A stretch of DNA of 60,466 bases from an uncultured Candidatus Micrarchaeota archaeon (GCA_903835385.1 CAILMQ010000048.1:1-60466), one strand, 5' to 3'; positions 4,165 through 29,287 are shown, numbered from the stretch's first letter. Translations and numbers: made by a program. The notes: generated by a model from the letters alone, not told the origin.

Positions 4165-4301
4165 GTCTTCCCATTAGCCGATAATTCGTTGTTTTCTTAC
4201 GGTATTCTAAGGAGACGCAGACACCCGGCTTTCAATTGCTGCGTCGGTCGTGTGGTGTTCCTCTTCTGCACAACCAGCACCGCGCCAACAAATCGGTGTC
4301 T
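4165..4301. ncRNA. Candidate structured ncRNA/element, copy 1
   Basis: Stems 4214-4220/4239-4245 and 4250-4259/4276-4285, pseudoknot 4219-4225/4295-4301; sequence blocks shared with 29155-29287. Confidence 0.5.
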
Positions 4302-4303
4302 TT

Positions 4304-5905
4304 TTACTGCTCAACCAGCGCATCCACGTCGAGCTCGCAGGCATAGACCTCGAACTCGAGCCGCTGCTGCTTCAGTATTTCGTCCCTGATCTTGCCGAAT
4401 ATCCCCGCCTTCTTGTTCCTGATAAAAACAGCGCCTGCCCGCGTCTGGTCGAACGCTGGGTGGGTGGTCTTCCCGAGCGTGAGCTCCCCGCCGCATTCAC
4501 CGACCAGGATCTGCAAATGCCCCTTCGCAGCCGAATACTCGACCTTCCTGTCCATGATGCCGAAAACAAGCTTTTTTTTGGCCTCTTCCGCCTCATAGAC
4601 AATTCCGATTTCGTAAAGCTTCTGGGGCAGGCCCTTGTTTTTGTTGGTCTCGAACACTGCCAGCAAATCCGCCAGCAGGGTGGGCCGCAGGCAGGTGAAC
4701 TCCTCGCCAGAGGGATTCTCTATCTCCTTCACCTCGCCCCCATAGCCCATCCTCGCCACCCTGTTTTTGTTCGTAAGTATGAACGTCGTTATCTCCAGGA
4801 ACCCCATGCCGCGCATGGTTGCGTTCAGGGTCTCGTGTTCCGTGTTCCGGCGCCCGACAGTGAAGAAATCCGGCAGTTTCGGCACGAATTTGTTGTAGCC
4901 ATAGGCGATGGCGATGTCCTCTATCACGTCCACCTCGTGGATGACGTCCGCACGGAAGGGCGGCACCAGGGCATAGCTCCCTTCCATCTCATAGCCCATG
5001 CGGCCTGCGAGCACTGCAACGTCTTTGGCAGCCAGCCTAAGGCCGAGCAGCATGTTCACGTCCTTCAGGTTGACCTTCATCCTCTTCGGCTTCAGGTCCG
5101 GCGCGGTTATCTTCCTGTGCGGATACCTGACCTCCACGGAATGAACGGCCCCTCCCATATCGGCGAACATGGTGACGAGTATGTTGAGCGCCGCGGTGAC
5201 GGAGTTCCCGTCTATTCCGCTCACCTCTATGAAAATATCGTTCGTTTCCAGCCCGACCTGGCCGGTCTCTGCCGAATTTACGACCGGAAGCAGGGCCATT
5301 ATCCTCCCCTTCGCATCCACGAACACCGGCCATTGGGAAAAGCCCTTGATTATGTGGCCGTGCTCCAGGCCCTTGGGGTGTTTTTCTATTATCTCGGGCG
5401 CGGTTGCCTCGTTTTCCCATCCAAGGGGCCGGTAGCGTATCGCCTCGGGTTTCATGGCGGTGTATTTCACCGGGAATGCGATTTTATCCAGGGGGTAGAT
5501 GCCGATGCCGAACTTCTTCGCCCGCCTTCCGAGCGTTGCGACAAGCTTTTCCTGCACCTGGACCATGTCTATTATGCGTTCGTCGGTGAACCGCAGCCCC
5601 CTCACAACGGCACACACTGTGTATGGCCTCACCTTTTCCACGGATGCGTCCACGTCCACGGCGTAATCGCCTTTTTTCGCCGCGTAGTGCGTTATCTCCC
5701 CCTTGTAGTAGGACCTGAGCGAGCGCGAGAGCCCCTCCAGCGCGAACCAGTCCGGCCGGTTCGGGGTTAGCTCCACGAGCAGTTTTTTGGTTTCCTTCTC
5801 CTCCTCGCAGGGCGCGCCGATTTCCGTCAGCCCCTCCATTATCTTCTCCTTCGGGAACCCGCAGAGCTTTTCGAAATCGCTTATGAGGAACTCGACAACC
5901 GCCAT
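4304..5905 (-). CDS. pheT: Phenylalanine--tRNA ligase beta subunit (archaeal type)
   Basis: ELTPNRPD, B3/4 domain, PPFRADVIHEVDVIEDIAIAYGY, LRPTLL. Confidence 0.95.
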   Translation of the reverse strand: MAVVEFLISDFEKLCGFPKEKIMEGLTEIGAPCEEEKETKKLLVELTPNRPDWFALEGLSRSLRSYYKGEITHYAAKKGDYAVDVDASVEKVRPYTVCAVVRGLRFTDERIIDMVQVQEKLVATLGRRAKKFGIGIYPLDKIAFPVKYTAMKPEAIRYRPLGWENEATAPEIIEKHPKGLEHGHIIKGFSQWPVFVDAKGRIMALLPVVNSAETGQVGLETNDIFIEVSGIDGNSVTAALNILVTMFADMGGAVHSVEVRYPHRKITAPDLKPKRMKVNLKDVNMLLGLRLAAKDVAVLAGRMGYEMEGSYALVPPFRADVIHEVDVIEDIAIAYGYNKFVPKLPDFFTVGRRNTEHETLNATMRGMGFLEITTFILTNKNRVARMGYGGEVKEIENPSGEEFTCLRPTLLADLLAVFETNKNKGLPQKLYEIGIVYEAEEAKKKLVFGIMDRKVEYSAAKGHLQILVGECGGELTLGKTTHPAFDQTRAGAVFIRNKKAGIFGKIRDEILKQQRLEFEVYACELDVDALVEQ

Positions 5906-6715
5906 CTAAACACCTTTGCACGCGCCGTCGGCGAAAAACTCCCCGTAGGCGCCGCAAACATATCCCTGTTGCTGCGGACTGTTTTTATACTCTTTTGAAA
6001 GGTCCAGGAAGCACGCCCTTGCCGCGCCCACGCTTTCCGCATTGATGCAGCCGAGAATCTTCTGGTTCAGCTGGTCGGACAGGTAATACGCCCCGAACCC
6101 GATGGCAACCACCAGGGAAAGCGCGATTGGTATCGCCAGCGCCTTCCACATCTCCATTGGCGGCTCGGGCGGCCAGCCCGCCTTCCCCTCCCTGATGGCG
6201 AGCGCGAGCCCTCCGAAGAACCCGAGAAGGTGCGCGGAGTGCGCGATGGAATCGGCGCTGCCCATGTAGAACAGCTCTATGAGCGCGTATATGGGCCCGA
6301 CCATGTACATGGGCAGGGGCACGAAGTAGAAATATACCGTGAGATTCGGCTCCAGCAGCACGAGCGCGCCTATTATGCCGTATATCGCCCCTGACGCGCC
6401 CAGCGCGGTGCTGAAGGGCGAGCTGAAGAGCATGAAGCCCACGGAGCCCAGTATGCCGGATACGAAATAGATGAGCAGGAACTTGCCCGTGCCGACGCGG
6501 TTCTCGAGCACGCTGCCGAACATGAACAGGGCGAGCATGTTGAACAGTATGTGCTCCAGGTCCGCATGGCCGAACATGGATGTGATTATCGTCCATGGGG
6601 CCGCAAGCAGGTTTATGGGGCTGAGCGTCACCTGGGGGTACACGGCATCAGGCGCGGCCTGCTCCAGGATGAAGGCCAGGACGCAAAGCGCGATGAGAAC
6701 ATAGGTCGCCTTCAT
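5906..6715 (-). CDS. Rhomboid intramembrane serine protease with C-terminal extension
   Basis: HILFNM, GASG catalytic Ser, AHLLG catalytic His; extra TM and Cys-containing tail. Confidence 0.9.
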   Translation of the reverse strand: MKATYVLIALCVLAFILEQAAPDAVYPQVTLSPINLLAAPWTIITSMFGHADLEHILFNMLALFMFGSVLENRVGTGKFLLIYFVSGILGSVGFMLFSSPFSTALGASGAIYGIIGALVLLEPNLTVYFYFVPLPMYMVGPIYALIELFYMGSADSIAHSAHLLGFFGGLALAIREGKAGWPPEPPMEMWKALAIPIALSLVVAIGFGAYYLSDQLNQKILGCINAESVGAARACFLDLSKEYKNSPQQQGYVCGAYGEFFADGACKGV

Positions 6716-6766
6716 GTATTCACTCCCAGGACACGAGACACGGTACCCAAGACCGGAAACCCTTCT

Positions 6767-8152
6767 TCAGCCGCATTCGCTCGGCCACTTCCTTTCCTTC
6801 GCCAGCTGCTTCCCCGCGCCGGTCGGGTAGTCCTCGTTCAGGCAGCCGGTGCATAGCGGCAGGCCGAGCGTCTTTTTCAACCCCTCGATGGAAAGGTAGC
6901 CGAGGCTGTTCGCGCCGAGGTAAGTCTTTATCTCCGCCACGGTCTTCTCGTTGGCTATGAGCTCGGAATACGTGGACATGTCCACCCCGTAGAAGCAGGG
7001 CGCCTTTATGGGCGGGCAGGTTATCCGCAGATGCACCTCCTTCGCGCCAGCGGCCCGTACCAGGCTCACTATGCCGCGCAGCGTCGTGCCCCGTACTATG
7101 CTGTCGTCAATCAGCACCACCCTTTTTCCTTCCAGCACTTCCCTCACGGGGTTGAGTTTCAGCCTCACGGCTTCGCTTCTCGCCTGCTGGTTCGGCATGA
7201 TGAACGTCCTGCCTATGTACCTGTTCTTTATCAGCCCCTCCTCCACCGGAAGCTTGAACACATCCGCGAACGCCGCCGCGGCCTGGCGCGAGGTGTCCGG
7301 GACCGGCACCACGACATCCGCCTTCACGGGATGCTCCCTGGCCAGTTCCGTGCCCAGCCTCTTGCGCGCGTCATACACGGACAGGCCGTTTATAATGGAA
7401 TCCGGCCTGGAGAAATAGACGTACTCGAACATGCAGTGATGCGTCTCTTTCGGCATGATTTTCTTCCTGCTCATGCGTCCGTTGTCCAGCAGCGCCATCT
7501 CGCCGCCTGCAATCACGCCGCCGCTGTAGGGGATGTTGTTTATGTCCAGGGCCACGGTTTCTGACGCGAACATGATGAAATCGTCGTTCTCGCCCCACAC
7601 CAGCGGCCTGATGGCATGGGGGTCCCTGAACACCAGCAGCTTTGACTCGAATATTGCGGCGTCGGAATAGGCGCCGTCCAGCATCTCCATCACATGGCGC
7701 ACCGCGCCCTCGGCGCCGTCCTTCCTTTTCTCGTCAAGCAGCATGGCTATGGGTTCGGTGTCCACCGTGCTCATGTAGTTCCTGCCCATTTTCGCGAACC
7801 TTTTCTTGAGCGCCACATAATTCGCGAGGTGGCCGTTGTGCGCCACCGCTATGCCTGCGTACAGCGTGGGCTGCACGTCGCACAGGTCGCATTTGCCGGT
7901 CGTGGGATACCTGGTGTGCCCGATGCCGGCCGTGCCCTCTATCCCGAGGTCCTCCTCCTTGAACACGTCGCGCACCAGCCCCAGGCCCTTGCGCTCCTCT
8001 ATTTTCCCGTCCGGGGTGAGCACGGCGAAGCCGGCGGCGTCCTGGCCCCTGTGCTGGAGCGCCACCAGCGCGTTGTAAATCAGAGGGGTGACGCTGCGCC
8101 CCTTTTTGGACATTATGCCGACAATTCCGCATTCTTCCTTCGCATCTTCCAC
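6767..8152 (-). CDS. purF: Amidophosphoribosyltransferase
   Basis: Propeptide EE|CGIVG, LQHRGQD, GHTRY, CMFEYVYFSRPDS, DDSIVRGTT; GTG start at 8152 with GGTGAG SD. Confidence 0.95.
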   Translation of the reverse strand: MEDAKEECGIVGIMSKKGRSVTPLIYNALVALQHRGQDAAGFAVLTPDGKIEERKGLGLVRDVFKEEDLGIEGTAGIGHTRYPTTGKCDLCDVQPTLYAGIAVAHNGHLANYVALKKRFAKMGRNYMSTVDTEPIAMLLDEKRKDGAEGAVRHVMEMLDGAYSDAAIFESKLLVFRDPHAIRPLVWGENDDFIMFASETVALDINNIPYSGGVIAGGEMALLDNGRMSRKKIMPKETHHCMFEYVYFSRPDSIINGLSVYDARKRLGTELAREHPVKADVVVPVPDTSRQAAAAFADVFKLPVEEGLIKNRYIGRTFIMPNQQARSEAVRLKLNPVREVLEGKRVVLIDDSIVRGTTLRGIVSLVRAAGAKEVHLRITCPPIKAPCFYGVDMSTYSELIANEKTVAEIKTYLGANSLGYLSIEGLKKTLGLPLCTGCLNEDYPTGAGKQLAKERKWPSECG

Positions 8153-8339
8153 AGTCTCACCGCCGATAAGACTATTAGCCGCAAGTGTTTTTTTAAATGA
8201 CGCGGCTGCGGGAGAGCGCAAAGCAAAGCGGGTGGCCCGGACGGCGAAAAAGGAGCGGGACGCGTGCGTAGCGGCGTTGGAGCCATGCCAGCCAGTAGGT
8301 TATTTAAGCGTTCGCTACCATAGTATATATGGTGAAAAG

Positions 8340-9152
8340 ATGATTGGTGTGTTTAAAGAGGCTCCGACACAGGCGCAGGACCCGGCGCTCAGTTTCTATG
8401 CCACTATGAAGCCGGCGGACATACAGAGGATACAGGATAACGTGACCCGTGTTTTGAGCTCGCGCGATTTCACTCCCAAGCCCATGGTTCCGGGCAAGGC
8501 GGATAAGAATTTCATTGACAATGTGAAGTCCGCCCAGGTCGCCCTCGGCGTGGAGAAGCTGGACGGCAAATGGGGCAAAATTACCGATACTCACAACGAA
8601 CGGTTTGCCCAGGTGAATGAGATACAAGCCAAAGTGACCCGTGTTTTGAGCTCGCGCGATTTCACTCCCAAGCCCATGGTTCCGGGCAAGGCGGATAAGA
8701 ATTTCATTGACAATGTGAAGTCCGCCCAGGTCGCCCTCGGCGTGGAGAAGCTGGACGGCAAATGGGGCAGAACTACGGATGCTCACAACGAACGGTTTGC
8801 CCAGGCGCAGGAAAAGGCCGATAAGACGGAGCAGTCGGCGGTGAGGCGCCTCGCGGACATGGTGCCGAAGGAAACCGCGCTTGCCCGCGCATCGGAGTCG
8901 CCCGCGACCGCTGCGGCTTACAACGTAACCGTGAGGGTAAGTGAAGTGCCCGGCATGAAACCGAGGGAAGTCACCCTGCGCAGCAATACGGAATACGCGA
9001 AAATGAGTTCCACAGAACAGAAAAGCTTCAATGAGCGGGCCCTGAGGCTTGCCTATAAGCAGGAATACGGGCACACGCCAAGCGCGCAGGAACTTAACGA
9101 CGTCGCCGCGGTGATAAAGCACGTCAAGAGCGAAAAAATGAGGACGGACTGA
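8340..9152 (+). CDS. Hypothetical protein with two tandem 64-aa units resembling peptidoglycan-binding domain 1
   Basis: TATA-like TATTTAAG at 8301, GGTGA SD, ATG 8340; unit motif VKSAQVALGVEKLDGKWGxxT. Confidence 0.7.
   Translation: MIGVFKEAPTQAQDPALSFYATMKPADIQRIQDNVTRVLSSRDFTPKPMVPGKADKNFIDNVKSAQVALGVEKLDGKWGKITDTHNERFAQVNEIQAKVTRVLSSRDFTPKPMVPGKADKNFIDNVKSAQVALGVEKLDGKWGRTTDAHNERFAQAQEKADKTEQSAVRRLADMVPKETALARASESPATAAAYNVTVRVSEVPGMKPREVTLRSNTEYAKMSSTEQKSFNERALRLAYKQEYGHTPSAQELNDVAAVIKHVKSEKMRTD
8442..8805 (+). repeat. Intragenic direct repeat, 172-bp copies at 192-bp period
   Basis: 8442-8613 vs 8634-8805; first 136 bp identical, 4 clustered mismatches after that. Confidence 0.95.
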
Positions 9153-9215
9153 GAGCGCAGCGGAGTCCGGCGCTCCCTTATCCGTTTTCCTTCTTCCTTC
9201 ATTTGCCCTCTCTTC

Positions 9216-10025
9216 CTATTTTGCCTTTTTCGTCACCTGAGCCCCGGCTTCCGGAGGGCAGGGGACAATCAGCCTTTTGAGTACCTCCCCTTCGCCAAAC
9301 ACGTCGCACTGGCTGCCCGTGCATTCAATCGACGCCGCGCCGCCATGCACGCCATCCTCTATCGTCGCGTGCACCCCTTTGCAGTTCGCGTATGAAATCA
9401 TGAAGCTGCCGGTCTCTGGGAAGAGCACGTGCGTATAAGGCCCGCTTCTTTTGATGACCGCACGCGCCGCGCGGCCCTTTTCCGGTTCTTTTTTGGAAAC
9501 CCATTGCCCGAGGGTGCCGTCGGCATTGAAATATTCCACCGCGGTCAGCCCGTTATCGAAAGCCACATACGCCTTCGTGCCGTTGTCGAAAAACGCGACC
9601 TCCACGGCATTATACCTGAAATCCACGTGGCTCACCGCGCCGGCGCCGTCCTTCAAGGATGCCGGGGAGCCGTAAACCTCTATCCTGTTCCGGTAGGCAA
9701 TCCGCGTCCTGCCTCCTGAGCAGGATAACTGTATCGGAACCATCTCGCCGCGGTCTATGTTGAATTGCGGCAGCAGGCTCTCGCTCGTCCCCGCGCCTGT
9801 TTTTACCGTAAGCGTGTTCCCGTTGATTTCGCATGTGCCGCCCTCCCATGCAGAAGACAGCCTGCGCTCGCTGCCTGTTTTCCCAATCAGGGCATCCGCC
9901 ATCGGGCCTTTGGCGGTCGCAGTGCCCCAAGAAGTTCTTGCCGCCACGCCAGGCGCCCCTGCCAGTGCGGGCTTTGAGAATGCGAGAAGCAATCCTAATG
10001 TTGCGGCGGCCAGTTTCTTTTGCAT
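9216..10025 (-). CDS. Hypothetical secreted beta-rich protein
   Basis: Signal peptide MQKKLAAATLGLLLAFSKPALA; several Cys. Confidence 0.7.
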   Translation of the reverse strand: MQKKLAAATLGLLLAFSKPALAGAPGVAARTSWGTATAKGPMADALIGKTGSERRLSSAWEGGTCEINGNTLTVKTGAGTSESLLPQFNIDRGEMVPIQLSCSGGRTRIAYRNRIEVYGSPASLKDGAGAVSHVDFRYNAVEVAFFDNGTKAYVAFDNGLTAVEYFNADGTLGQWVSKKEPEKGRAARAVIKRSGPYTHVLFPETGSFMISYANCKGVHATIEDGVHGGAASIECTGSQCDVFGEGEVLKRLIVPCPPEAGAQVTKKAK

Positions 10026-10168
10026 CAAACCATCCGGGTTTCGGGTTCAACGGATTAATATGGATTAACAGGTTAATATACTTAGTGTGGTTATATTTAA
10101 AAAGATATGTTTGAATACGCCACGTTCCGGCGTTGGTTTTTAAAAACATATTTGCGCAGAGTATCCTC

Positions 10169-10581
10169 ATGGACGACGGGCTGGTCGTGGGCAGGGACGT
10201 GCTCAAAGCCGTTGGCGGCCAGACGCGCGTAAGCATACTCAAGGCCCTGCGCCAGAGGCAGAAGACCCAGAGCGAATTGGCATCCGAACTCAGGCTTTCC
10301 GCCCCGACGGTCCTGGAGCACATGGCGCAGCTGGAAAAGGCCAATCTCATCGAGCCGGTTCCGGAATACCCGGGCAGGACATTCCCCCTGCTGGCCGGCA
10401 GCGGTTTAGAGGCCGGCGCGCCCAGCCTTCCGGTGGCAGCTCCCAGGCAATGTACGCGATGTCCGCTCTCGACAGTTCCCCGCGCGTGTTTGTCGGGCTG
10501 CTCGCAATGCTATTCCTCATAGCCACGCTCTGCCTGGCGGCCTATGCCTGGCATTCACGGCGCGCATCCCCTCACAGGTAA
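10169..10581 (+). pseudogene. ArsR-type wHTH regulator with membrane segment, apparently frameshifted
   Basis: TRVSILKALRQRQKTQSELASELRLSAPTVLEHMAQLEKANLI; wing strand missing; a TM segment (VFVGLLAMLFLIATLCLAAYAW) lies in another frame ending at TAA 10581. Confidence 0.55.
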
Positions 10582-11780
10582 TAGAGGTCAGAAGGCATTA
10601 TCACCCTGTAGAGCACCAGCGCCACCCCGAGCATGAAGGGTATGACAATCACGGAAAAGCCGATGAACATCATAGCCGACTCCTTTCCCCTTCCCCAAGG
10701 CTGCTGCCGCTCGTACACGAGATATGCGCTTCCCAGCCAGGCGACCAGGAAAACGAAACCCGCCACCTGCGCGTCCGGCATGTTCACCCCGATAATCGCA
10801 CCCGACACGACCGTCACCGCGACCAGCGCAGCGAAGGAAACCGCATATACGAACGATTTCACTGCGCAGTCGGAGAGCGGCGCAACTCCCTGGGCCAAAG
10901 GCGCCTGGGCCGGAACCGTCCGGGCACCGGCCGCCTGCGCAGGAGAAGCGGTCCCCTGCCGTCCTTTCGAAGCCGCCGCGTTCGTTTCCCTCGCCTTTTT
11001 CCTCACGAAGTATGCGCCGAGCCCGAGGAGCGCGAGCACGAAAGCGATTTCAGGCGCATAGAGCAGCATCTTGTTCCTGCCATAGCTCCCGCTGACGACC
11101 ATGCTTTCGCCTGCGAACAGCGTGCTCTTCTGCGTCGTATAGCCGTAGGAATACGAGCTGTACGAGTAAAGCCCGGACATCGCGGCCTGCGTGTCTCCGC
11201 TCCCGCTTTCCAGAGCCTTCATGTCAGTGGCAATTGGCTGGTAGTTCCCGCTGCTTCCGCCTTCTTTGAGGTAAAGTCCCTGGTCCACATTGATGGAAAC
11301 CTGCGTGCTGTCCACGTCAAACCCGTATTTTGGGGTCTCGAAATCAAAACCCGTTCCAAGGATGCCGCTTTTCGCGTACCCGAATGCGCGGTAGAGGATG
11401 AGCAGGCTCGTGGAATGGCCCTTTTCCAGCGGTTTGCCAAGTTTCAGCCTGTAGCTGCCGGCTCCGGCTTTCTCATATGTTACCGGATCGAATTCGTAGT
11501 TGTAATAGCAGCTGCTGTAATCAACGCTTCCGTTCTCAATACAATCCCTCTTCTGGTACGCCCCGACCATCCTCACATCGGTTCCCGGGATGTTCAGGTC
11601 TATGGTGCTCGCGGCAGAATCCGCGTTATTCGTGTAATCCAGCCGCAGCACCGCGTTCGCCAAACCCCTATCGTCAAAAGAAACGGAATAATACGCGCTG
11701 GTCCCGTAGTCCGCGCCGTAGTATGCGCCAGTGAGCCCGGCCAGCAGAAGCCCCACGAAAATCCACGTCAGGTTTTTCAT
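10572..11780 (-). CDS. Membrane-anchored surface protein (signal peptide, beta-rich ectodomain, about 4 TM)
   Basis: Hydrophobic N-terminus, Tyr/Ser-rich ectodomain, TM at about aa 240-260 and three near the C-terminus. Confidence 0.8.
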   Translation of the reverse strand: MKNLTWIFVGLLLAGLTGAYYGADYGTSAYYSVSFDDRGLANAVLRLDYTNNADSAASTIDLNIPGTDVRMVGAYQKRDCIENGSVDYSSCYYNYEFDPVTYEKAGAGSYRLKLGKPLEKGHSTSLLILYRAFGYAKSGILGTGFDFETPKYGFDVDSTQVSINVDQGLYLKEGGSSGNYQPIATDMKALESGSGDTQAAMSGLYSYSSYSYGYTTQKSTLFAGESMVVSGSYGRNKMLLYAPEIAFVLALLGLGAYFVRKKARETNAAASKGRQGTASPAQAAGARTVPAQAPLAQGVAPLSDCAVKSFVYAVSFAALVAVTVVSGAIIGVNMPDAQVAGFVFLVAWLGSAYLVYERQQPWGRGKESAMMFIGFSVIVIPFMLGVALVLYRVIMPSDLYYL

Positions 11781-11844
11781 GGTTAATACTGATGCCCTTC
11801 CCGTATTTATAAGCAGGAGAATTGGTTAGGCTAAACCCTAAGCA

Positions 11845-12150
11845 TCATTTGCGCGCCGGCTCCTTTTTCGCAACCGCATTCGTAAGCGCGTATATGACGA
11901 CCGCAACCAGGACCGTCACAGCGAGCGCGACCAGTATCTCGTAGCCCCATGCGCCGCTTATGGGTATGAGTGTCTTTATGGTGTCGGTTATGGCCGTCTG
12001 CCAGAAAAGCGCTGCCACCAGGGCCAGCGCGGTCGTTATCACGGTTATGATGCGGGTCTCCACCTCTTCCCTGGCTCTCCGTGCAATCTCGCGCCTCTCG
12101 AACTTCCTTTCCAACTCCTTTTCCGTTTCCCCGGTTATCCTGTCTGCCAT
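11845..12150 (-). CDS. Small 2-TM membrane protein, DUF5654-like
   Basis: ITTALALVAALFWQTAI pattern. Confidence 0.7.
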   Translation of the reverse strand: MADRITGETEKELERKFERREIARRAREEVETRIITVITTALALVAALFWQTAITDTIKTLIPISGAWGYEILVALAVTVLVAVVIYALTNAVAKKEPARK

Positions 12151-12235
12151 GCCCAGAATTGCCAGGCTATGGTTTAAAAATTACATCGTACGATAATTTT
12201 CCACATAGACGAATTCATCACTGAAAGGTATCCAC

Positions 12236-13399: not shown

Positions 13400-13437
13400 A
13401 CAAAGGCGTACGTTCAATCAGATGTTCTGGTGTTTTC

Positions 13438-13834: not shown

Positions 13835-13841
13835 TGAGCTT

Positions 13842-15340: not shown

Positions 15341-15341
15341 G

Positions 15342-19721: not shown

Positions 19722-19726
19722 GGTTA

Positions 19727-21169: not shown

Positions 21170-21278
21170 GTATCTCAACCTCTCCATTTCTCATTAATAT
21201 AATTTGTCCTTGCTGTTAGATTATGTAAGAAGGGTTTAAATAACATATACACAGCCAATCCCACATCTCTGACGACCG

Positions 21279-21707
21279 TTAAACAGCCGGTTTCCCGCTG
21301 CGCAGCCATGCCGCGTTCTTGCCGAGTTTCTGGTCCTTGGCGTCCTCCAGGGACAGCCACCTGAAGCCCGAGAATTCCGGCGCCGGTTTCGCCCTCATGC
21401 TTTTGGCAGTCACCTTGAAAACAAGGCAGGGCACCATGAACCTGCGCTTCCTGGAGCCTGCGTTGTACCTTCCTTCCAGGACTATCTCGTGCACCTGGCC
21501 GTCTATGCCTGTCAGCCTTGGGAACGCCTCCTTTATGTCCGCGAACGGGCTCCTGCCTGACGGAACTATCACGCACGGCATCTCAATCCATTCCACTGCG
21601 TTGTCGTCCCTGCGGACAAGGAAAAGAACCCTGCCCCCATCCTCCAGCATGCCGCAGGCGAGCGCTTTCGGAAGCCTCGTTCCGGTCTGGACCCTTCGGC
21701 GCCCCAT
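21279..21707 (-). CDS. NUDIX-fold-like protein with degenerate Nudix box
   Basis: GRVLFLVR..EWIEMP..LTGI..EFSGFRWLSLED pattern; Nudix glutamates not evident. Confidence 0.6.
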   Translation of the reverse strand: MGRRRVQTGTRLPKALACGMLEDGGRVLFLVRRDDNAVEWIEMPCVIVPSGRSPFADIKEAFPRLTGIDGQVHEIVLEGRYNAGSRKRRFMVPCLVFKVTAKSMRAKPAPEFSGFRWLSLEDAKDQKLGKNAAWLRSGKPAV

Positions 21708-21715
21708 CAGACCAG

Positions 21716-22900
21716 CTACTCGTAGGTCCTCGCCCACATCTCCTTCGCGAGCTTGCCTTTGTACATGAACGTGTCAACGTCCTTGGCCGCGCCCTTTTTC
21801 CCCTCGCGGAAGTCCCTGAGGAACGCGTTTATTTTTTCTATGAGCAGCGCCTTCATCTCGCCGCTGAGCATCTTCCCGGAGCGATAGTCGTCATGAACCT
21901 GCTTCAGTTTCGCGTCGTCCGGCTCGAACATGATGGAGAGCCACTGGTAGGGCACGTCGATATCCGGGTCGCCCCCCAGTTTCCTGTGCTCCTCCACGCT
22001 CGGCCTTCCGCCGGAGAACGCGTATTTGTTTATCTTGTTCTTCACGGTCTTCTCGTCGTCCGTGAGCAGTATCGCGGTCTCCTGGCCGGCACTGGAGCTC
22101 ATCTTGCCCGTCACGCCCTGCAGCGGGGGCATGAACTTGCTGTGTATCGCCGCGGTCTTGTAGTAGCCGAGGCCTTCGGCAATGTCCCGCTGTATCCTCC
22201 AGTAGGGGTCCTGGTCAATCGCGCAGGGGATTAGGCACCTTTTTTTCTCGAAAAAGGTCGGTATGGTCTGGTAAACCGGATACATGGACAGCCCCACGTT
22301 GGTGGAGTCGTCAAAGCCGAAAACCGCCTTCACCGTGGAGCCCGTGACCTTCCTCGCCGCCTTCAGGAGAAGCGGATAGACGTTCCTGACGTATTCCGTG
22401 TTCCTGAAGATGAAAGTCCGTTCCGGGTCGAAACCCAGCGCGATTATGTCGAGGACGTTGTCCTTTGCCGCGGCCTGGACATCCTCCCATTCGTATTTTT
22501 TGTGCAAGAACCCCTCGTCATCGGTTATCTCTATGTAAAGGTTGCACTTGAAGCGCTCCTGGAGCCATTTGGTGAGCACCATGGGGACAAGATGCCCGAT
22601 GTGCATGCCCTTGCTGGGCTTCCTTCCGGTGTAGAGGAAAAAGCCCTTTCCCTGCTCGTGGTCCTTGAGCACAAGGTCGAGGTCGCGGTGCGAGAAGAAA
22701 AAATCCCTGCGCAGCATGTGGTGGAGGCCGCTTCCGTAGTCCTTGTGCAGCCGCTCTTTCAACTCCGGCGTTATCCTGCTGGTCCCGAACTGCCTGGTGA
22801 GCTTGTCGTAATCTATCGCCCCGGAAACCTCCCATGGGGTGACCTTGAACTCATCAGTGGCCCCTACATTTTCTCGTAACTCGAGCTTGTGCTCTGCCAT
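21716..22900 (-). CDS. trpS: Tryptophan--tRNA ligase (archaeal/eukaryotic type)
   Basis: VTPWEV, YTGRKPS..MHIGH, AIDQDPY, KMSSS, AFSGG. Confidence 0.97.
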   Translation of the reverse strand: MAEHKLELRENVGATDEFKVTPWEVSGAIDYDKLTRQFGTSRITPELKERLHKDYGSGLHHMLRRDFFFSHRDLDLVLKDHEQGKGFFLYTGRKPSKGMHIGHLVPMVLTKWLQERFKCNLYIEITDDEGFLHKKYEWEDVQAAAKDNVLDIIALGFDPERTFIFRNTEYVRNVYPLLLKAARKVTGSTVKAVFGFDDSTNVGLSMYPVYQTIPTFFEKKRCLIPCAIDQDPYWRIQRDIAEGLGYYKTAAIHSKFMPPLQGVTGKMSSSAGQETAILLTDDEKTVKNKINKYAFSGGRPSVEEHRKLGGDPDIDVPYQWLSIMFEPDDAKLKQVHDDYRSGKMLSGEMKALLIEKINAFLRDFREGKKGAAKDVDTFMYKGKLAKEMWARTYE

Positions 22901-22923
22901 GGCAGGAATAACGCGGAATGAGA

Positions 22924-23259
22924 TTAAAAAACTAACAGTAATCCCGCCATAAATGACGCCGCGTTGCACAGGAAGCTGGTCCTGAGCGCATCAACCCAAT
23001 TCATGCCCGGGAACAGCGCGCGGTAAACCCCGGCTTCCACGACAAAGGCGAAAATCTCGGCGAGCGCCGTCAGTAGCGCCCAGGACCCGGGACCCAAGAC
23101 CGGAAACACGAACCACACGAACGGAAGCGTGAGCGTGCTCGCCAGGACCGAATTGCGCGCTATGAGCATTGGATCGAACCTGTTCCTGAGAAGGAGAAAC
23201 GCAATCGCGGTCTCGATGCCGACGGTGAGGACGTAAGCCCCGATGAAGCCCAGCATCAT
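22924..23259 (-). CDS. Small 4-TM membrane protein
   Basis: Hydrophobic, with LTxxIE, N..TLP and AE..A..VE; overlaps upstream gene by 4 bp. Confidence 0.75.
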   Translation of the reverse strand: MMLGFIGAYVLTVGIETAIAFLLLRNRFDPMLIARNSVLASTLTLPFVWFVFPVLGPGSWALLTALAEIFAFVVEAGVYRALFPGMNWVDALRTSFLCNAASFMAGLLLVF

Positions 23260-23768
23260 TCCTTCCCCGCAAGGAACGCAATCGTTGCAAGCGCGGAAAG
23301 CACGAGCGAAGGCATGAAGCAGGATAGCGGATAAGGGATGTTAGAAGTGTTTGCGCTCTTTATCTTTCCGCTTTCCGAATCCACCACGAACGAATACCCG
23401 CTCGCTCCGGAACTGTTGTTGATGGTGTTGTTGAAATAATCCGTGCTTATCATCCGCCCGTTCGACTCATAGGAAAAGTACCCTTCAGGAAAATCATAGC
23501 AGGGATTGAACTTGTAGAACCACGAGCCGTCGTTCCTGCATTTCCCGCCCGTGCAGGGCAGGTCCGCGAGCCTTTGCGTAACGGCGCCGTTGTCCGATGC
23601 GTTGCTTCCCATGCAGTGATAAGTGAGCAACGCAACCCCGGAGTCCGGCGTTCCGTCGCTTTTCTGCACGTACACCGCAACGTCCGGGGACGGCGGCGAA
23701 GGGCCCACGTCAGCAAAGCACAGGGAAACGATGAGCAATGCAACAGCCAGCAAAACAAAGAGTCTCAT
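23256..23768 (-). CDS. Secreted protein with C-terminal Cys-containing anchor
   Basis: Signal peptide ending FA|DVGP; C-terminal SCFMPSLVLSALATIAFLAGKE. Confidence 0.8.
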   Translation of the reverse strand: MRLFVLLAVALLIVSLCFADVGPSPPSPDVAVYVQKSDGTPDSGVALLTYHCMGSNASDNGAVTQRLADLPCTGGKCRNDGSWFYKFNPCYDFPEGYFSYESNGRMISTDYFNNTINNSSGASGYSFVVDSESGKIKSANTSNIPYPLSCFMPSLVLSALATIAFLAGKE

Positions 23769-23777
23769 TCCATCTCC

Positions 23778-23909
23778 TCACGAATCCGTGCAGTCCCTTT
23801 TGTGGCCGCACCTTGGGCAGCTCACGCTGCAGACGTTCTTCGGCAGTTCCTTGCCGCAATTCTCGCAAAGCGCCTTGTCAGGGGCGCAACACCCACAGCC
23901 CAATCCCAT
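23778..23909 (-). CDS. Small CPxCG-type zinc-finger protein (43 aa)
   Basis: CENCG and CPRCG motifs, 8 Cys. Confidence 0.7.
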   Translation of the reverse strand: MGLGCGCCAPDKALCENCGKELPKNVCSVSCPRCGHKRDCTDS

Positions 23910-23926
23910 TGTCATCAACCAGTATA

Positions 23927-24814
23927 TTACTTCTGGAAAAAATATAAAGCCAGCCGCTTGCTCACCAGAATGGACAGCGCGATGGCGGCGGCGAGGATTG
24001 CGAGCGAAACAACGACGCCCTGCCCCAGGATGCTCCATTTCCCGAGGGCAGTCTTCATCACGGATTCGTGGAATAGGAATATCTCGAACGTGTTCGCCGC
24101 CATGACGACCAGGGCGCCGGGCAGGGAAGCCACTTTGCCTCCCAGGCTTCCAAGAAGCATGAACAGCACGAAGGGAAGCACCATGAGCGGGTTGTTAAGC
24201 GCGCTCAGGAGCGCTAGCATGAGCACCAGCGGCCTCTTCTCGCCGTGTGCGATTGCGATGCCGAAGCAGAACTCCCCGAGGAAGAAAATAGGGGAGAAAT
24301 CGACCCACGCCGGCTGGAGCAGGTACCTGTTCGCGACCATCAGCAGGAACGCGGGAAGCAGGAACCAGGAGCTCTTCCTCATGAAGCGGTTCAGGATGGG
24401 GAACAGGATGTATAACCCCATGAGCGGCACTAAGAACCAGGCAGGGCTGATTATGGAATAAGATAAGTCTGGCGAGAGCCAGTTCAGGAAAAGGAAATGC
24501 AGGCCGAGGTCCTTTATCCTGCTGTTTATGTCCTCGCTTATGAAAAGCAGCGACACGCAGATGAGCGCAGGGTAGTAGAGCGCCGCAATCCTCAGCCATC
24601 TCTTCCTGAGCCAGTTGATGCTGAAGCGCTCCAGCTGAGCGTACTTCATGGCAAGCATGTACCCGCTGGCTATGAAAAAAAGCGAGACCCCGAAGAATCC
24701 GATCACCCGGAGGTTATCGTCAAGGGTGAACTCGTAGGCCACGTGGAAGCCGACAATCAGGAGTATGGCTATTACCCTCGCGATGTCCACCCATGCGATG
24801 CGCCCGTCCGCCAT
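23927..24814 (-). CDS. Acyltransferase-3 (OafA-like) membrane O-acyltransferase
   Basis: RIAWVDIARVIAILLIVGFH, GVSLFFIASGY, RWLRI, W(F)L..LY..FP. Confidence 0.88.
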   Translation of the reverse strand: MADGRIAWVDIARVIAILLIVGFHVAYEFTLDDNLRVIGFFGVSLFFIASGYMLAMKYAQLERFSINWLRKRWLRIAALYYPALICVSLLFISEDINSRIKDLGLHFLFLNWLSPDLSYSIISPAWFLVPLMGLYILFPILNRFMRKSSWFLLPAFLLMVANRYLLQPAWVDFSPIFFLGEFCFGIAIAHGEKRPLVLMLALLSALNNPLMVLPFVLFMLLGSLGGKVASLPGALVVMAANTFEIFLFHESVMKTALGKWSILGQGVVVSLAILAAAIALSILVSKRLALYFFQK

Positions 24815-24858
24815 ACGATGGGAATGACCGGAAGGCAATAAAAAGCCGGGCGCCGGTA

Positions 24859-24901
24859 TTTAAAAATGGTTCATATTATTAACAATCCATATATTGAACC
24901 A
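24859..24901 (+). promoter_or_regulatory. TATA box plus inverted repeat, candidate MarR operator
   Basis: TTTAAAAA 24859-24866 followed by TGGTTCA (24867-24873) and TGAACCA (24895-24901). Confidence 0.5.
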
Positions 24902-24925
24902 AGAATTTAACCGAGAGACGAGCCC

Positions 24926-25369
24926 GTGACTGATTCAAAAAAAGACCGCATAGCCGAGAACCTGTCATCCCTCGTGCGCCTGTTCCACATCATGCGCGCC
25001 AGGGCCTGCCGGAAGGGCGAGTCGCCGCTCGGGCCAGAGTACTGGACGCTCATATTCCTAAGCGAGGAGGAGCTGCCAATATCCGAGCTGGGGAGAAGGC
25101 TCCAGCGCTCCAAGTCCAACATGACGGCGATGATGGACCGGATGATGAAGGAAAACCTGGTGAGGCGCTCCCATGACCGCGGCGACCGCAGGGTCGTCAA
25201 AATATCCATCACCGCGGGCGGCAGGGCGTACCTGAAGGAGAAGCGGGCCCAGATGAAGGACAGCATAAAGAGGAGCCTCACGATGCTGCGCGAGCCGGAG
25301 CTGGATTCGCTCTGCGCGTCGCTGGACAGCGTGGGGCGCATAGCCGCGAAGCTGGAGAGGATGGCATGA
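24926..25369 (+). CDS. MarR-family transcriptional regulator
   Basis: ISELGRRL..SKSNMTAMMDRM...LVRR...DRRVVKISITAGG. Confidence 0.92.
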   Translation: MTDSKKDRIAENLSSLVRLFHIMRARACRKGESPLGPEYWTLIFLSEEELPISELGRRLQRSKSNMTAMMDRMMKENLVRRSHDRGDRRVVKISITAGGRAYLKEKRAQMKDSIKRSLTMLREPELDSLCASLDSVGRIAAKLERMA

Positions 25370-26160
25370 CCGGGACCAATGACGCAATCACTGGGCCAGC
25401 TCAGGCGGCACAAGCGCCGCTCACACGGGCCGCACCGGAGGCCGCACAAGCCGCCCAGGCGCCGCCCCATGCCGTCCGCGGAACCACAGCCCCTCCTGCG
25501 GCCCATCATCACGCGCCGGAGCAGGGTAAGCCGGGCATCATCACAATGATAAAGCAGCATCCGCTGGCCGCGGACGCGGTTTTCGTATTCGTGCTGCTGC
25601 TCCTGGTCGGAGGGTTCCTCTACTGGCACGACATGTCTGGCAAGATATACATCGAGAAGGCGCAGATAAGCGCGCCCGTGATAGAGATAAGCCCGTCAAT
25701 GCCAGGAGTGATAGACAAGTTCTACGTGCAGGAGGGCGACGAGGTCTCCCAGGGGCAGAAGCTCGCCAAGGTCGGGGACGAAACAATCACGGCCAGGACC
25801 GCCGGCGTCGTCACCTGGATACAGAACACACCGGGCCAGATGGCCAGCCCCGGGCAGCCGATAGTCAAGATGATAGACCCGCGCGAGTTCAGGGTCGTCG
25901 GCCGCATAGAGGAGGACAAGGGACTTGCGGACATAAAGCCGGGCCAGAAGGTCGCATTCACGGTTGACGCGTTCCCGGGCAGGCAATACTCCGGCGTGGT
26001 TGACTCGGTAGGGGCCGCGGCAAGGGATTCCGACATAGTGTTCAGCATCTCGGACCAGCGCCAGGAGCGCGAGTTCGACGTGAACGCGGTTTTCGACGTG
26101 CGCGCCTACTCCGAGCTCAAGAACGGCATGTCCGCCAAGATGTGGGTGTACAAGTCCTAG
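25366..26160 (+). CDS. HlyD/EmrA-like membrane fusion protein lacking the alpha-hairpin
   Basis: Single TM; lipoyl halves (VQEGDEVSQGQKL / ITARTAGVV) directly joined; IKPGQKVAFTVDAFP, LKNGMSA. Confidence 0.85.
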   Translation: MTGTNDAITGPAQAAQAPLTRAAPEAAQAAQAPPHAVRGTTAPPAAHHHAPEQGKPGIITMIKQHPLAADAVFVFVLLLLVGGFLYWHDMSGKIYIEKAQISAPVIEISPSMPGVIDKFYVQEGDEVSQGQKLAKVGDETITARTAGVVTWIQNTPGQMASPGQPIVKMIDPREFRVVGRIEEDKGLADIKPGQKVAFTVDAFPGRQYSGVVDSVGAAARDSDIVFSISDQRQEREFDVNAVFDVRAYSELKNGMSAKMWVYKS

Positions 26161-26192
26161 CCGCGCTCGCGTGGCAAAGGCCGCTGATTCTT

Positions 26193-27671
26193 ATGGACAG
26201 GAACGACGCCCGCTGGCTCATACTGCTGACCGTGATAATCGGCACGTTCCTGGGCAGGCTTGACCAGACCATCGTCAACCTCGCGCTCCCCAAGATAATT
26301 GGGGATTTTTCCATAACCGTTTCCCAGGCAGGCTGGATAGCGACCGCCTACATACTGGCGAACGCGGTGTTCGTGCCTGTGTGGGGCAAGCTCGGGGACA
26401 CCATAGGCAGGAAGAAGGTGTACATCTGGGGTTTCAGCATATTCATAGTGGGCTCCATCCTAGCCGGCCTGGCGTGGAACCTGAATTCCATGATAGTGTT
26501 CAGGATAATCCAGGCCATAGCCGGCTCAGCCGACTACCCCACCGCCATGGCAATCCTGGCGGTTACCTTCAGGGAGCCCAAGGAGCGGGCAGAGGCGCTG
26601 GGCATATGGTCCGCATCCTTCGCCGCGGCCACGGTTTTCGGCCCGCTCATAGGAGGCCCGCTCATAGACACGTTCGGCTGGCGCTCGGTGTTCCTGGTCA
26701 ACCTGCCCATAGGCATAATCGGCCTGGTCATGGCCTCGGTTTTCATAAGTGAGTCCGTGTCAGAGAGGAAGACCGTGAAATTCGACATCGAGGGCGCGCT
26801 GACGCTGGGCATAGCGCTTTCCGCGCTGGTGCTCGTGCTTGACCAGGGGCAGGGCTGGGGCTGGCTCTCCAACAACTCGCTGTTTTGCTACGCCGCAATG
26901 GTGGTTTTCGGCTATGCGTTCTACCGCATAGACAGGGTGCATCCGGAACCGATTGTGGATTTCAAGTTCTTCAGAATCAGCGCTTTCAACGGCGCGCTCA
27001 TCAACAACTTCGTGGTGTTCATGGGCATGATGGGCGGTGTTTTCCTCATTCCGGTCTTCGCCCAGGCATTCCTCGGCCTGGACGCCACATCCACAGGGTT
27101 CCTTTTCATGCCCATGGCATTCTGCATGATGATCGCCGCCCCGCTCGGGAGCGCGCTCATGGGAAGGGTACAGCCCAAATACGTCATCGCCGCAAGCACC
27201 CTGGTGGCAGGCGCCGGCATCTTCCTTTTCACGGGCCTGGACCCCCGCTCGGGGCCAATTGACATAGTGCTGCCCATATCCATAATGGCGTTCGGCATGG
27301 GTTTCGGCATGGCCCAGCGCACCAACATCATCGCCTCCGCCGTGCCTGCCGAGGAAATAGGCATAGCCTCGTCCGTGCTCGCCCTCGCGCGGAACATCGC
27401 CGGCGCATTCGGAATCGCGCTGTTCTCCACGCTACTGACCAACTCCGCGGAGAGCAATCTCATCAGCATATCCCAGAACAGCTTCATCCACACCGCGGAC
27501 CCGCTCATACGGGCGCAGTTCGTCGCGCTCATGGAGCTCAAGGCGCAGATACTGGCCTACCACACGGTCTTCATAGTGGCGGCGGCCATCATCACGGCAG
27601 GAGGAATAATCGCGCTTTTCACGCTGAACGTGAAGGAAAAGAAGAGCGGCGTGGAAGTTTTTATTGAATGA
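26193..27671 (+). CDS. DHA2 (EmrB/QacA-like) MFS efflux transporter
   Basis: LDQTIVNLALP, GKLGDTIGRKK motif A, GPLIGG..WRSVFLVNLPIG. Confidence 0.93.
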   Translation: MDRNDARWLILLTVIIGTFLGRLDQTIVNLALPKIIGDFSITVSQAGWIATAYILANAVFVPVWGKLGDTIGRKKVYIWGFSIFIVGSILAGLAWNLNSMIVFRIIQAIAGSADYPTAMAILAVTFREPKERAEALGIWSASFAAATVFGPLIGGPLIDTFGWRSVFLVNLPIGIIGLVMASVFISESVSERKTVKFDIEGALTLGIALSALVLVLDQGQGWGWLSNNSLFCYAAMVVFGYAFYRIDRVHPEPIVDFKFFRISAFNGALINNFVVFMGMMGGVFLIPVFAQAFLGLDATSTGFLFMPMAFCMMIAAPLGSALMGRVQPKYVIAASTLVAGAGIFLFTGLDPRSGPIDIVLPISIMAFGMGFGMAQRTNIIASAVPAEEIGIASSVLALARNIAGAFGIALFSTLLTNSAESNLISISQNSFIHTADPLIRAQFVALMELKAQILAYHTVFIVAAAIITAGGIIALFTLNVKEKKSGVEVFIE

Positions 27672-27694
27672 AATAAAAATAAAAAAAAGGAAGG

Positions 27695-28663
27695 CTAATC
27701 GCAGATCCCTTCCTTCTTCACCCTGAACACGCACTCGCCCTCGGGCAGGTTCGGGGAGTCCACGAGCCGCGCGATGCGCTTGTCGTCCTTTGACTTGCGC
27801 AAATAGACCCGGTAAGTGGAGGAATGCGCGACAATATTCCCGCCAATGGGCTTGGTCGGGTCTCCGAAGAGCATGCCCGGGTCGTCCATGACCTGGTTCG
27901 TCAGGTAGATTGCGATGTTGTAGTTGTCCGCGAGCCTCTGCAGGGTGTGCACGTGCTTGTTCAGCTTCTGCTGCCTCTCGCCGAGCGCGCCCCTTCCCAG
28001 GTAGTCCGAACGGAAGTGCGAGGTGAGTGAGTCCACGACGATGAGCCCGATGTTCTTCTCCTTTATCAGGTCCTCGCATTTCTCTATCAGGATTATCTGG
28101 TGGTCGGAGTTCTCCGCCCTGGCGACATATATGTTTTTCAGCACCTCGGTCGCGTCCATGCCCTGGCCTTCGGCGAGCTGCGCGATGCGGTCCGGCCTGA
28201 ATGTGTGCTCGGTGTCGACGAAAATCACGCCCTTTCCAAGGCCCCCCTGCTCCTGCGGCTTCTGCACGTTCACGCAGAGCTGGAACCCCAGCTGGCTTTT
28301 GCCCGAGCTGAACCGCGCGTAGGCTTCGGTGATGGCCTGGGTTTCCACGCCCCCGCCCAGCAGCTCATCGAGCGCTTTGGAGCTCGTCGCTATCCTGCCT
28401 ATCACCTTCCTGCGCTCAAGGACCATGTCGCCGCTCTCAAAACCGATTTCCACCATGGATTTGGCCGCCTCGATGGCTTTTCTGGAGGCTTCCACGCCAA
28501 TGCCGCTTATCTCCGAGAGGTCCTGCGGCGACATGGTCGCCAGCTTGGAGAACTCGCTGTACCCGGCCACTCTTATCTTTTCTGCGGACACCTCCCCTAT
28601 TCCGGGAAGGTCCTCAAGGTCCTTGTAGAATTTCTTCTTTTTGTCGTTTTTGTCATCTGTCAT
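27695..28663 (-). CDS. radA: DNA repair and recombination protein RadA
   Basis: LEDLPGIG Hh[48 protein letters not shown]. Confidence 0.97.
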
Positions 28664-28668
28664 AATCA

Positions 28669-28983
28669 TCACTGTTCCGTTTGCTTGTCGAATTTATTGG
28701 CGTTCGCGAACACGAGCAGCTTAAGCTGGCCTATCTTTAGCGTGTAAAATTCGTTGCCCTGCTTGGAAACGTTCTTCCACATGCCGCCCACATTCACGTA
28801 AACCGATTTTCCCTCCTTGTCGCGGTCGGTCTGCACCACGCGGAAATCCGGCCTGTTTCCGCCTGGGGCCGGGCCACCCGTGCCAGGTTTCAGGTTCCCG
28901 GTTTCCGGTTTCGGGTCCTGCTTTTCCTCACCCGTAACCTCCTCGAATCCCTCGTCCCCTAAATTTACTTCCGTTTCTTTCAC
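28669..28983 (-). CDS. DUF736-like small protein
   Basis: [24 protein letters not shown] pattern; acidic N-terminus; AGGTGA SD, GTG start. Confidence 0.6.
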
Positions 28984-28995
28984 TCAAATCACCTG

Positions 28996-29063
28996 AGTAT
29001 ATACTTAGATATTATACGTATATACTAAGGGATTAGGGCAAAGCCTGGTATAAAAACGTTTCG
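28996..29063 (-). promoter_or_regulatory. radA-operon promoter (BRE-TATA) with two GTATATAC palindromes
   Basis: Minus strand CGAAA-CG-TTTTTATA (29063-29049); AGTATATACT 28996-29005 and GTATATACT 29018-29026, 21 bp apart. Confidence 0.65.
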
Positions 29064-29074
29064 GAGGTGGATTT

Positions 29075-29287
29075 CCGCGGAATCCGGCGCACCGGATTCC
29101 GTGGCACCGAGTTCGGATCGCCGAACTCGATTGCCGCGGCTCCTGACCTTCTAAAGTTTTCCCATCAGTGCGGTCCTACATCGCTTCTCACCCGTCTTCC
29201 TAAGGTCGCTCGTCCCCTGTTTGCCTGGTGCTCGCGAGGTCCCTTCGGTGTCTGACTTGTGCACCAGGCAGTCTGAACGCGGCGTCC
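29075..29287. ncRNA. Candidate structured ncRNA/element, copy 2, preceded by two strong hairpins
   Basis: Stems 29075-29104 (13 bp), 29108-29129 (9 bp), 29222-29231/29261-29270 (10 bp), 29133-29138/29278-29283; blocks shared with 4165-4301. Confidence 0.55.

Follow-up and report, generated by a model that had tools for sequence, protein, structure and literature searches.

We find that a 60,466-nt stretch of DNA from an uncultured Candidatus Micrarchaeota archaeon (hereafter the window) carries three copies of a structured element belonging to a real, previously undescribed repeat family, of which the genome holds some sixty copies. The family is a proliferating repeat and no fixed set of RNA genes, and the stretches in the window are probably members of a non-coding, non-autonomous repeat that multiplies in the spacers between genes. 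An earlier note on the window had described two copies, each abutting a stop codon, and had proposed for them a new non-coding RNA (ncRNA) family or a REP-like mobile element. The 45-nt motif common to both is genuine and its coordinates as given there are correct: TTCCCATTAG is found from 4168 and TTCCCATCAG from 29159, in both cases with TTCTYAC 16 nt further on and TTC..TAAGG behind it, and the likeness of the two stretches lies well beyond chance (E=1e-30 and 3e-19; 89.8 and 79.1 bits). The element is not limited to two copies, since a third lies in the window at 3557-3671 on the minus strand. Taken broadly, the REP-like half of that proposal holds, because the element is multi-copy, strictly intergenic, structured and unannotated, is missing from nine of nine orthologous sites and has no Rfam match; a strict likeness to REPs does not hold, and the ncRNA-gene half is less likely than a mobile repeat.

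The genome to which the window belongs (G000) is a 1.29-Mb assembly in 68 contigs, 89% complete. A profile built from 10 of its copies and searched with nhmmer yields 59 matches at E<1e-4, with E-values down to 1e-33 across about 150 nt, and a covariance model, which the earlier note had wanted from its two copies and which was built from 41 intact ones, yields 62 at E<=0.01. The 10-mer TTCCCATTAG by itself occurs 13 times, mostly within a far longer common context. By crude gene calls, 52 of the 59 copies are wholly intergenic. Insertions and deletions of 1 and 2 nt within the conserved head would break any reading frame, so the element is non-coding; these same changes rule out a minus-strand protein reading (…KKTTLLG*). 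Tandem arrays of two or three units occur on contigs C1, C10, C30, C40 and C41. Throughout, plus denotes the strand read from the head of the element to its last helix, P3, the orientation used in the earlier note.

Comparison with relatives places the gain of these copies after speciation. All nine orthologous sites tested (the three of the window, four on contig C40 and two on C46) are empty in G002, a member of the same genus assembled as a single 1.57-Mb contig, whose PheT is 86% identical and which has two matches in total. The region around copy 2, 29081-29298, has no element counterpart there. At the pheT site the outgroup G001 (PheT 69% identical to that of G000) is empty too: the pheT stop is followed by 8 nt and then by the inverted repeat that flanks ORF79, a 79-aa open reading frame (ORF), and by parsimony the element was therefore inserted in the G000 lineage. 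A broader model, R2, made from 64 copies of four genomes and run on 41 genomes of the taxonomic family, detects the element in 11 of them, and counts within a genus vary sharply (59/2/1, 41/10/4 and 13/1/0). The same order of modules recurs in four genera. Some genera (G005) have a diverged, tandemly arrayed version of their own, for which reason the element may be present even where none was counted. Metagenome contigs from four DNA runs (peat and freshwater sediment) carry the copies with their junctions and none joins across an empty site, a result that speaks neither for fixation nor against empty alleles.

The conserved core measures about 105-115 nt within a unit of 105-150 nt. From 5' to 3' the unit opens with roughly 20 nt of weakly conserved leader (CTG…CTTAcGT) and the conserved, non-palindromic head TTCCCATTAG, and continues through a small hairpin, H1, whose register varies by subfamily, a conserved pyrimidine tract, GTTGTTTTCTTaCTGTaTTCTAaGG, the strongly covarying stem-loop P2, whose loop spans about 15 nt, and a GGTG/P3 region (AGTCn…GGTGTT…nGACT) into a tail that varies between copies. 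Head and pyrimidine tract together (about 45 nt) are non-palindromic. Across 41 copies, 15 non-palindromic positions are invariant or nearly so. P2 is where the family covaries. Among the sequences found in its arms are GACGTGG/CCACGTC, GACGCAG/CTGCGTC, GGCGCAGC/GCTGCGCC and TGCGAGG/CCTCGCA, and in the large subfamily its base reads TTCG/CGAA, GACG/CGTC, CACG/CGTG or TCGC/GCGA. RNAalifold predicts only the four pairs of the P2 base, each of which is maintained through double changes. When a 15-pair structure was tested with 500 shuffles and with slid-partner controls, changes on both sides were counted in 58 cells against 22.7 +/- 3.3 after shuffling (0 of 500 shuffles reach 58), and 75.6% of cells were paired, against 34-48% with the partners slid. 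The P2 loop is half conserved (…TTTGACT…).

P2 is not the stem for which a compensatory change had been proposed. That stem, TGGTGY...GCACC (GTGTGGTG/CACCGCGC versus GCCTGGTG/CACCAGGC), draws on non-homologous alignment columns, namely the P3-region GGTG of copy 1 and the P2 loop of copy 2, and its 3' partner is absent from C10:9221-9333, the closest relative of copy 2 (87% identity over 108 nt); it is no family feature, and the genuine covarying stem is P2. The hairpin described in the 16-nt spacer is present in most copies, with a register that differs among them. The terminal AA-N2-CGGYGTC does lie 3 and 12 nt from the two minus-strand stops, CGGTGTC ending at 4300 before that of pheT (4304-4306) and CGGCGTC at 29286 before that of lysC (29299-29301), but it is unconserved in the family, as is the cUUCGg loop.

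The earlier failure to match the element to a known RNA was borne out: Rfam 15, with its models for SRP, RNase P, riboswitches, archaeal C/D and H/ACA sRNAs and HEARO, gave no match at gathering score across the whole window, and permissive scans of both spacers gave chance-level matches only, the best being a microRNA model at E 0.067. C/D-box or H/ACA guide RNAs were rejected, there being no such boxes (by eye, RUGAUGA is absent from the family consensus on both strands) and the half-conserved P2 loop being no variable guide. A long-range pairing, 'P1', of TTCCCATTAG with CTAAGG shows, by eye, no compensating changes at key columns and is not predicted by RNAalifold. A K-turn in minus-strand P2 could have its tandem G-A but, by eye, is without the 3-nt bulge.

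Copy 1 corresponds to an inserted segment at 4151..4303 (plus strand), delimited by alignment of the orthologous site, which lacks it in G002 and G001; the nhmmer match extends over 4143-4296. Its core lies on the plus strand at 4156..4267. The parts are the head TTCCCATTAG at 4168..4177, conserved in the family alignment, the H1 hairpin region (CCGATAATTCGTTG...) with the conserved pyrimidine tract GTTGTTTTCTTACGGTATTCTAAGG at 4178..4213, P2 at 4214..4245, in which an 18-nt loop separates the paired arms GACGCAG (4214-4220) and CTGCGTC (4239-4245), and the P3/GGTG region (GGTCGTGTGGTGTTCCTCTTCTGC) at 4246..4269, a helix with moderate support only. The insert lies between the inverted repeat flanking ORF79 and the pheT stop codon. 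Copy 2 has its core at 29147..29260, its head TTCCCATCAG at 29159-29168, the base of P2 at 29206-29209 (TCGC) and 29234-29237 (GCGA) and P3 at 29238-29257, likewise on the plus strand. Copy 3, found by both profile and covariance model, has the P2 arms GACGTGG/CCACGTC and is bounded on one side by the stop of an acetyl-CoA-synthetase-like gene (3553-3555) and on the other by the left arm of the inverted repeat around ORF79. Each of the three copies follows, within 1-20 nt, the stop of a gene encoded on the opposite strand, these genes being acs-like, pheT and lysC; none has an AT-rich box at its tail, and they look like tolerated passengers. By Pfam, the gene adjoining copy 1 encodes the PheRS beta chain and that adjoining copy 2 an amino-acid kinase of the aspartokinase type, with ACT domains; an archaeal host is indicated by the adjoining genes RadA and B5-domain PheT. 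ARAGORN finds no tRNA gene in the window.

The surroundings of the window copies have features of their own. A 25-30-bp inverted repeat at 3677-3707 and 4123-4150 (GGGGACCCCATAGTTCCACTAATAGG / CCCAATAGTGGAACTATGGGG) brackets ORF79 (3833-4072), which has no Pfam match, and repeat and ORF stand at the same place in G002 and G001 without the elements. In G000 copies 1 and 3 have been inserted just outside the two arms, at equal relative distance and with their heads inward. Just upstream of copy 2, at 29067-29130, is a string of perfect short hairpins (GGATTTCCGCGGAATCC, CGAGTTCGGATCGCCGAACTCG) that is missing in G002, adjoined by the AT-rich palindrome TATACTTAGATATTATACGTATATACTAAG at 28985-29034.

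Elsewhere, the placement of the copies is informative. In G000 the neighbour on the head side is on the opposite strand in 26 cases and on the same strand in 23, and on the tail side in 30 and 19; in spacers between co-directional genes the reverse orientation is the commoner (17 vs 7), and eight copies lie between convergent genes. A tRNA is the head-side neighbour of nine of the 59 copies, six of them divergent, and genes found at head ends include tRNA-Glu, -Cys, -Thr, -Arg and -Ser and several protein genes. In a second genus (G003) the arrangement is tighter: in 12 of 20 copies an ORF of at least 50 aa starts 3-7 nt past the head end on the opposite strand, and eight of these 12 ORFs match Pfam families unrelated to one another (PIN, KH, Spt4, XPG/FEN1, GATase+SIS, L30, aIF2-gamma and T2SSF), which rules out a regulon. 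One further copy abuts a tool-confirmed tRNA-Ala and three more abut sequences that are tRNA-like by eye only; of seven tRNA-like loci in G003, one was confirmed by ARAGORN and Rfam. At the aIF2-gamma and FEN1 operon junctions of G041, which belongs to the genus of G003, the upstream stop and the ATG are 1 and 4 nt apart, and in G003 the same junctions hold an insert of about 205 nt with its tail to the upstream gene and its head to the ATG. Because these junctions measured just 1-4 nt, the contact of the insert with both genes is in part imposed by the site and is no proof of a promoter.

Read on the minus strand, the element presents first, in many copies, an AT-rich box. Some 18 nt on comes the P2 hairpin, and after it a stretch rich in purines and then CTAATGGGAA. 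This last motif is the reverse complement of the head TTCCCATTAG; it is TATA-like, takes the form TTATAATGAGAATA beside tRNAs, and has its centre about 27 nt ahead of the gene start. By eye, most G003 copies show, starting roughly 18 nt past P2, an AT-rich block resembling TTATGTAAAT, and in protein-linked copies, as opposed to tRNA-linked ones, the ATG is preceded at about 9 nt by a GGAGG-like motif. Automated counts under strict criteria, which are too crude, place the AT-rich block at a fixed distance in six of the 20 copies and the CAT at its expected distance in seven. In G002 the tRNA-Glu gene keeps a TATA box 26 nt away; in G000 the element stands between this box and the tRNA, its tail facing the box, and canonical TATA boxes are also found just beyond the tail at tRNA-Cys and tRNA-Thr. 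Homologous sequence thus stands upstream of non-homologous genes in both G003 and G000, as in mobile promoters. Judged from this geometry, promoter activity is putative, and the element may be a portable promoter/leader cassette.

We propose that the repeat would spread as DNA, or by way of an RNA copy, leaving neither inverted ends nor a detectable target duplication. Lineages that are still spreading would have to retain the P2 hairpin, which would explain the compensatory changes. The strand opposite to that of the earlier note would carry expression signals (the AT-rich box, the TATA-like head and, in G003, GGAGG), so that insertion at a junction would leave the downstream gene unsilenced and could supply it with a new promoter and leader. 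Inserts that could be delimited start 17-23 nt before the head and end 10-50 nt after P3. A variant in which P2 is interrupted by a hairpin string of about 190 nt is found in three copies, 82-84% identical, so copies interrupted in this way had been duplicated in turn, a point in favour of copying as DNA.

A number of observations weigh against a proliferating repeat, most of them concerning how it would move. The 5' and 3' end sequences of inserts differ from site to site. Terminal inverted repeats are absent in five of the six delimited inserts (30-nt ends against shuffles), the score of the sixth being due to the self-complementary AAGCGCTT. Flanking direct repeats, measured as the longest word common to both flanks, average 5.98 nt against 5.76 in cross-copy comparisons (52 copies), which leaves room for duplications of 2-4 nt; by eye, an imperfect flank repeat of 6-7 nt is seen at only two of six junction pairs. 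No target motif is common to the six junctions, whose left flanks end in TCT, CCA, CGG, CAC, ATG and TGA. Candidate machinery is lacking as well. No protein family in G000 has more than three members at >=50% identity, no parent insertion sequence was found in the assembly, and no copy encloses a gene; at 89% completeness and in 68 contigs, a repeat-rich parent may have gone unassembled. Y1 transposase (PF01797) has no match in G000, G001, G002, G003 or G005, with six of 14 control genomes positive, which counts against mobilisation by IS200/605 or RAYT, and reverse transcriptase (PF00078) has no match in G000 and one match, in G003 only, which counts against retroposition in G000; tails are heterogeneous and not A-rich. 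TnpB runs inverse to the element count (eight in G002, two in G000 and none in G003), on which ground a TnpB/IscB guide RNA was rejected; the comparison with TnpB RNAs and IS200/IS605 ends that had been suggested came out negative. Moreover, only about one fifth of G000 copies abut a gene start, and the core is recognisable across genera whose PheT is only 46% identical. The lone orthologous pair, a copy beside tRNA-Ser common to G000 (contig C25) and G002, has kept P2 through a double change (GACGTGG/CCACGTC vs GGCATGG/CCATGTC), which also fits a host function. Finally, wobble pairing (G-U over A-C) favours the plus strand, by 48 vs 1 in H1 and 38 vs 12 in P3, and the plus-strand fold is more stable in 46 of 64 copies, by a small difference; both speak against reading the cassette on the minus strand.

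Several of these points would suit small ncRNA genes on the plus strand, running from head to P3 and acting in trans, for example protein-bound through the pyrimidine tract, and multiplying like SINEs or snoRNA genes. Their mobility would be genuine, with the RNA as what the element is for. We hold this to be unlikely, even though it would account for the wobble bias in H1 and P3, the slightly better plus-strand folding, the covariation of P2, the tandem arrays and the persistence of the core between genera. It would also fit the three G000 copies that directly follow a same-strand tRNA in the manner of co-transcribed RNAs, and the run of five T found within 60 nt after the tail in 21 of 52 copies (five A in eight); these T runs, however, coincide with TATA-like boxes such as TAAATTTTTAAG. 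An AT-rich box occupies the lone 10-nt bin that fits a plus-strand start in just seven of 52 copies, and the 12 copies of G003 that lie 3-7 nt from a divergent start codon have no room for an upstream promoter of their own. A set of RNA genes would hardly number 59 in one species and two and one in others of its genus, nor be missing from all nine sites examined in the sister species, and no Rfam family matches. No RNA run was listed as containing window positions 3500-4400.

The gene layout points to the minus strand, as do the P2-core mismatches (A-C over G-U, 7 vs 2) and a TC/CT mismatch in P2, found in 25-27 of the 41 G000 copies (the large subfamily, where it is invariant), which on the minus strand is a tandem G-A/A-G. 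Together with the head-to-gene layout of 12 of the 20 G003 copies, the GGAGG-like motif confined to protein-linked copies, the TTATGTAAAT-like block after P2, the TATA boxes beyond the tail at tRNA-Glu, tRNA-Cys and tRNA-Thr and the double change beside tRNA-Ser, this is what one would expect of a cis element kept by the host, a minus-strand promoter and 5' leader whose P2 stabilises or regulates an mRNA or a pre-tRNA and whose spread is secondary to host need. Such retention is nonetheless quite improbable: the downstream genes are unrelated and form no regulon, the same genes do without the element in sister species, eight G000 copies lie between convergent genes, and the tails of the window copies are without an AT-rich box. 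The strict automated count finds the AT-rich block at a fixed distance in six of 20 copies, and the wobble statistics of H1 and P3 favour the other strand. That there is no single family at all, and that unrelated hairpins and promoter-like low-complexity sequence arising by local replication slippage merely share a composition, we regard as very improbable indeed. The lineage does make strings of hairpins in its spacers (29067-29130 of the window, and the hairpin inserts in copies), and quasi-palindrome repair could yield 'compensatory' changes without selection, but slippage does not produce profile E-values of 1e-33 across about 150 nt, 15 invariant or near-invariant non-palindromic positions in 41 copies, one module order in four genera, or pairing that drops to 34-48% once partners are slid.

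The proliferating repeat thus remains the explanation we favour, and a bolder version of it may be put forward with considerable reserve. A mobility system so far unknown, in this family of the DPANN archaea, with neither inverted ends, target duplication nor a recognisable transposase and perhaps coupled to transcription or working via RNA, might insert cassettes of promoter and 5' hairpin leader at gene junctions, with P2 recognised by the machinery. We think this rather doubtful; if true, operons would be split and essential genes (aIF2-gamma, FEN1 and several tRNAs) placed under one common new control region.

By analogy, the element would seem to work most like the promoter-bearing small repeats of bacteria, and it also resembles REP-type structured repeats. 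Correia elements carry terminal inverted repeats and a TA duplication, whereas the Micrarchaeota family has neither of these end hallmarks, is archaeal, has a covarying internal stem-loop and possesses a promoter activity that is putative. REPs, by comparison, are imperfect palindromes that are short, about 20-40 nt in length. With REP/REPIN (RAYT) the family shares structured intergenic repeats, stems kept paired through compensatory change and a copy number that varies among close relatives; it differs in its 105-150-nt unit, its non-palindromic head and the lack of a Y1 transposase in all five genomes searched. The copies around ORF79 are inverted in the style of a REP pair but mutually diverged. 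MITEs (miniature inverted-repeat transposable elements) are known from archaeal hosts, the prokaryotic MITEs SM1-SM4 of Sulfolobus among them, and the element is like them in size (MITEs being shorter than about 500 bp), in being non-coding and intergenic, in its dozens of copies and in its archaeal host; unlike them, it has no terminal inverted repeats, no consistent target duplication and no parent insertion sequence found in the assembly. With IS200/IS605-derived palindrome-associated elements (PATEs) and TnpB guide RNAs it has in common the absence of inverted ends and target duplication and the reliance on hairpins, yet no target tetranucleotide is conserved at the six junctions, TnpA is absent and there is no attachment of the element to the 3' end of a tnpB. 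Eukaryotic short interspersed nuclear elements (SINEs) show a similar combination of conserved structured core, variable 3' ends, bursts in single lineages and association with tRNA genes; here, in contrast, no reverse transcriptase was found in G000 (89% complete), there is neither an A-rich tail nor a target duplication, and a variant carrying an insertion of 190 nt in its interior went on to be copied. The defining tests failed for MITEs, REP/RAYT, IS200/605 derivatives and SINE-like retroposons alike. As far as their outline description goes, putative mobile promoters (Nijveen, Matus-Garcia and van Passel; PMC3575422) are promoter-bearing small bacterial repeats, and like these and the Correia elements (CREE/NEMIS) of Neisseria our family is small, gene-less, present in many copies and confined to spacers. 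In the same outline (PMC3575422), homologous copies precede non-homologous genes, as here, can be co-transcribed with them and apparently bring a promoter, as the present copies may. A literature search at the level of abstracts turned up no description of this element family or of repeats of Micrarchaeota.

Some sixty copies of a structured repeat make up about 0.5% of the DNA in a very small and tightly packed Micrarchaeota genome. Given that the sister species is nearly without copies, genome reduction and repeat invasion proceed side by side. Copies stand at gene junctions, at junctions of former operons ahead of essential genes and between a tRNA and its old TATA box, so the element likely rewires transcription in hosts that are hard to culture. 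Tested for inverted ends, target duplication, RAYT/TnpA and reverse transcriptase, which mark the known classes of small mobile repeats, the family showed none of them, and it therefore points to a mode of spreading undescribed in archaea. For annotation, it accounts for many 'orphan' conserved spacers and probably for several contig breaks in such assemblies.

Further observations concern the make-up of individual copies and loci. In G000, copies at C46:20633-20930, C32:27219-27442, C47:27322-27549, C40:27068-27232 and C3:584-767 carry an interruption within or next to P2, 54-190 nt long and built of perfect stacked hairpins such as CATTGTCCGACGATTCGGACAATG, which resembles the long introns of tRNA genes in this genome; ARAGORN predicts introns, of up to 330 nt, in 25 of its 37 tRNA genes. 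One subfamily (C37, two copies on C40, C64, C15, C47 and C3) has AAGCGCTYA in the 5' leader and again, after TTTTT, behind the tail; the motif is self-complementary and forms a short terminal direct repeat within the inserted DNA. Runs of 7-nt periodic repeats (GCTCACT GCCCAAT GCTCATT…) lie some 30-90 nt beyond the tail of many copies at the G003 loci L077-L096 and at the aIF2-gamma and FEN1 junctions belong to the insert. At C54:18893-18950 of G000 the first 8 nt of tRNA-Gly, GCGGCCAT, are repeated 50 nt upstream, between the tRNA and an element head and right at the element boundary, either as a duplicated gene end or as the sign of an unrecognised intron near the tRNA 5' end. Several apparent tRNA 5' halves beside elements, such as that at C63:16507, were left uncalled, and the tRNA set of G000 is accordingly under-annotated.

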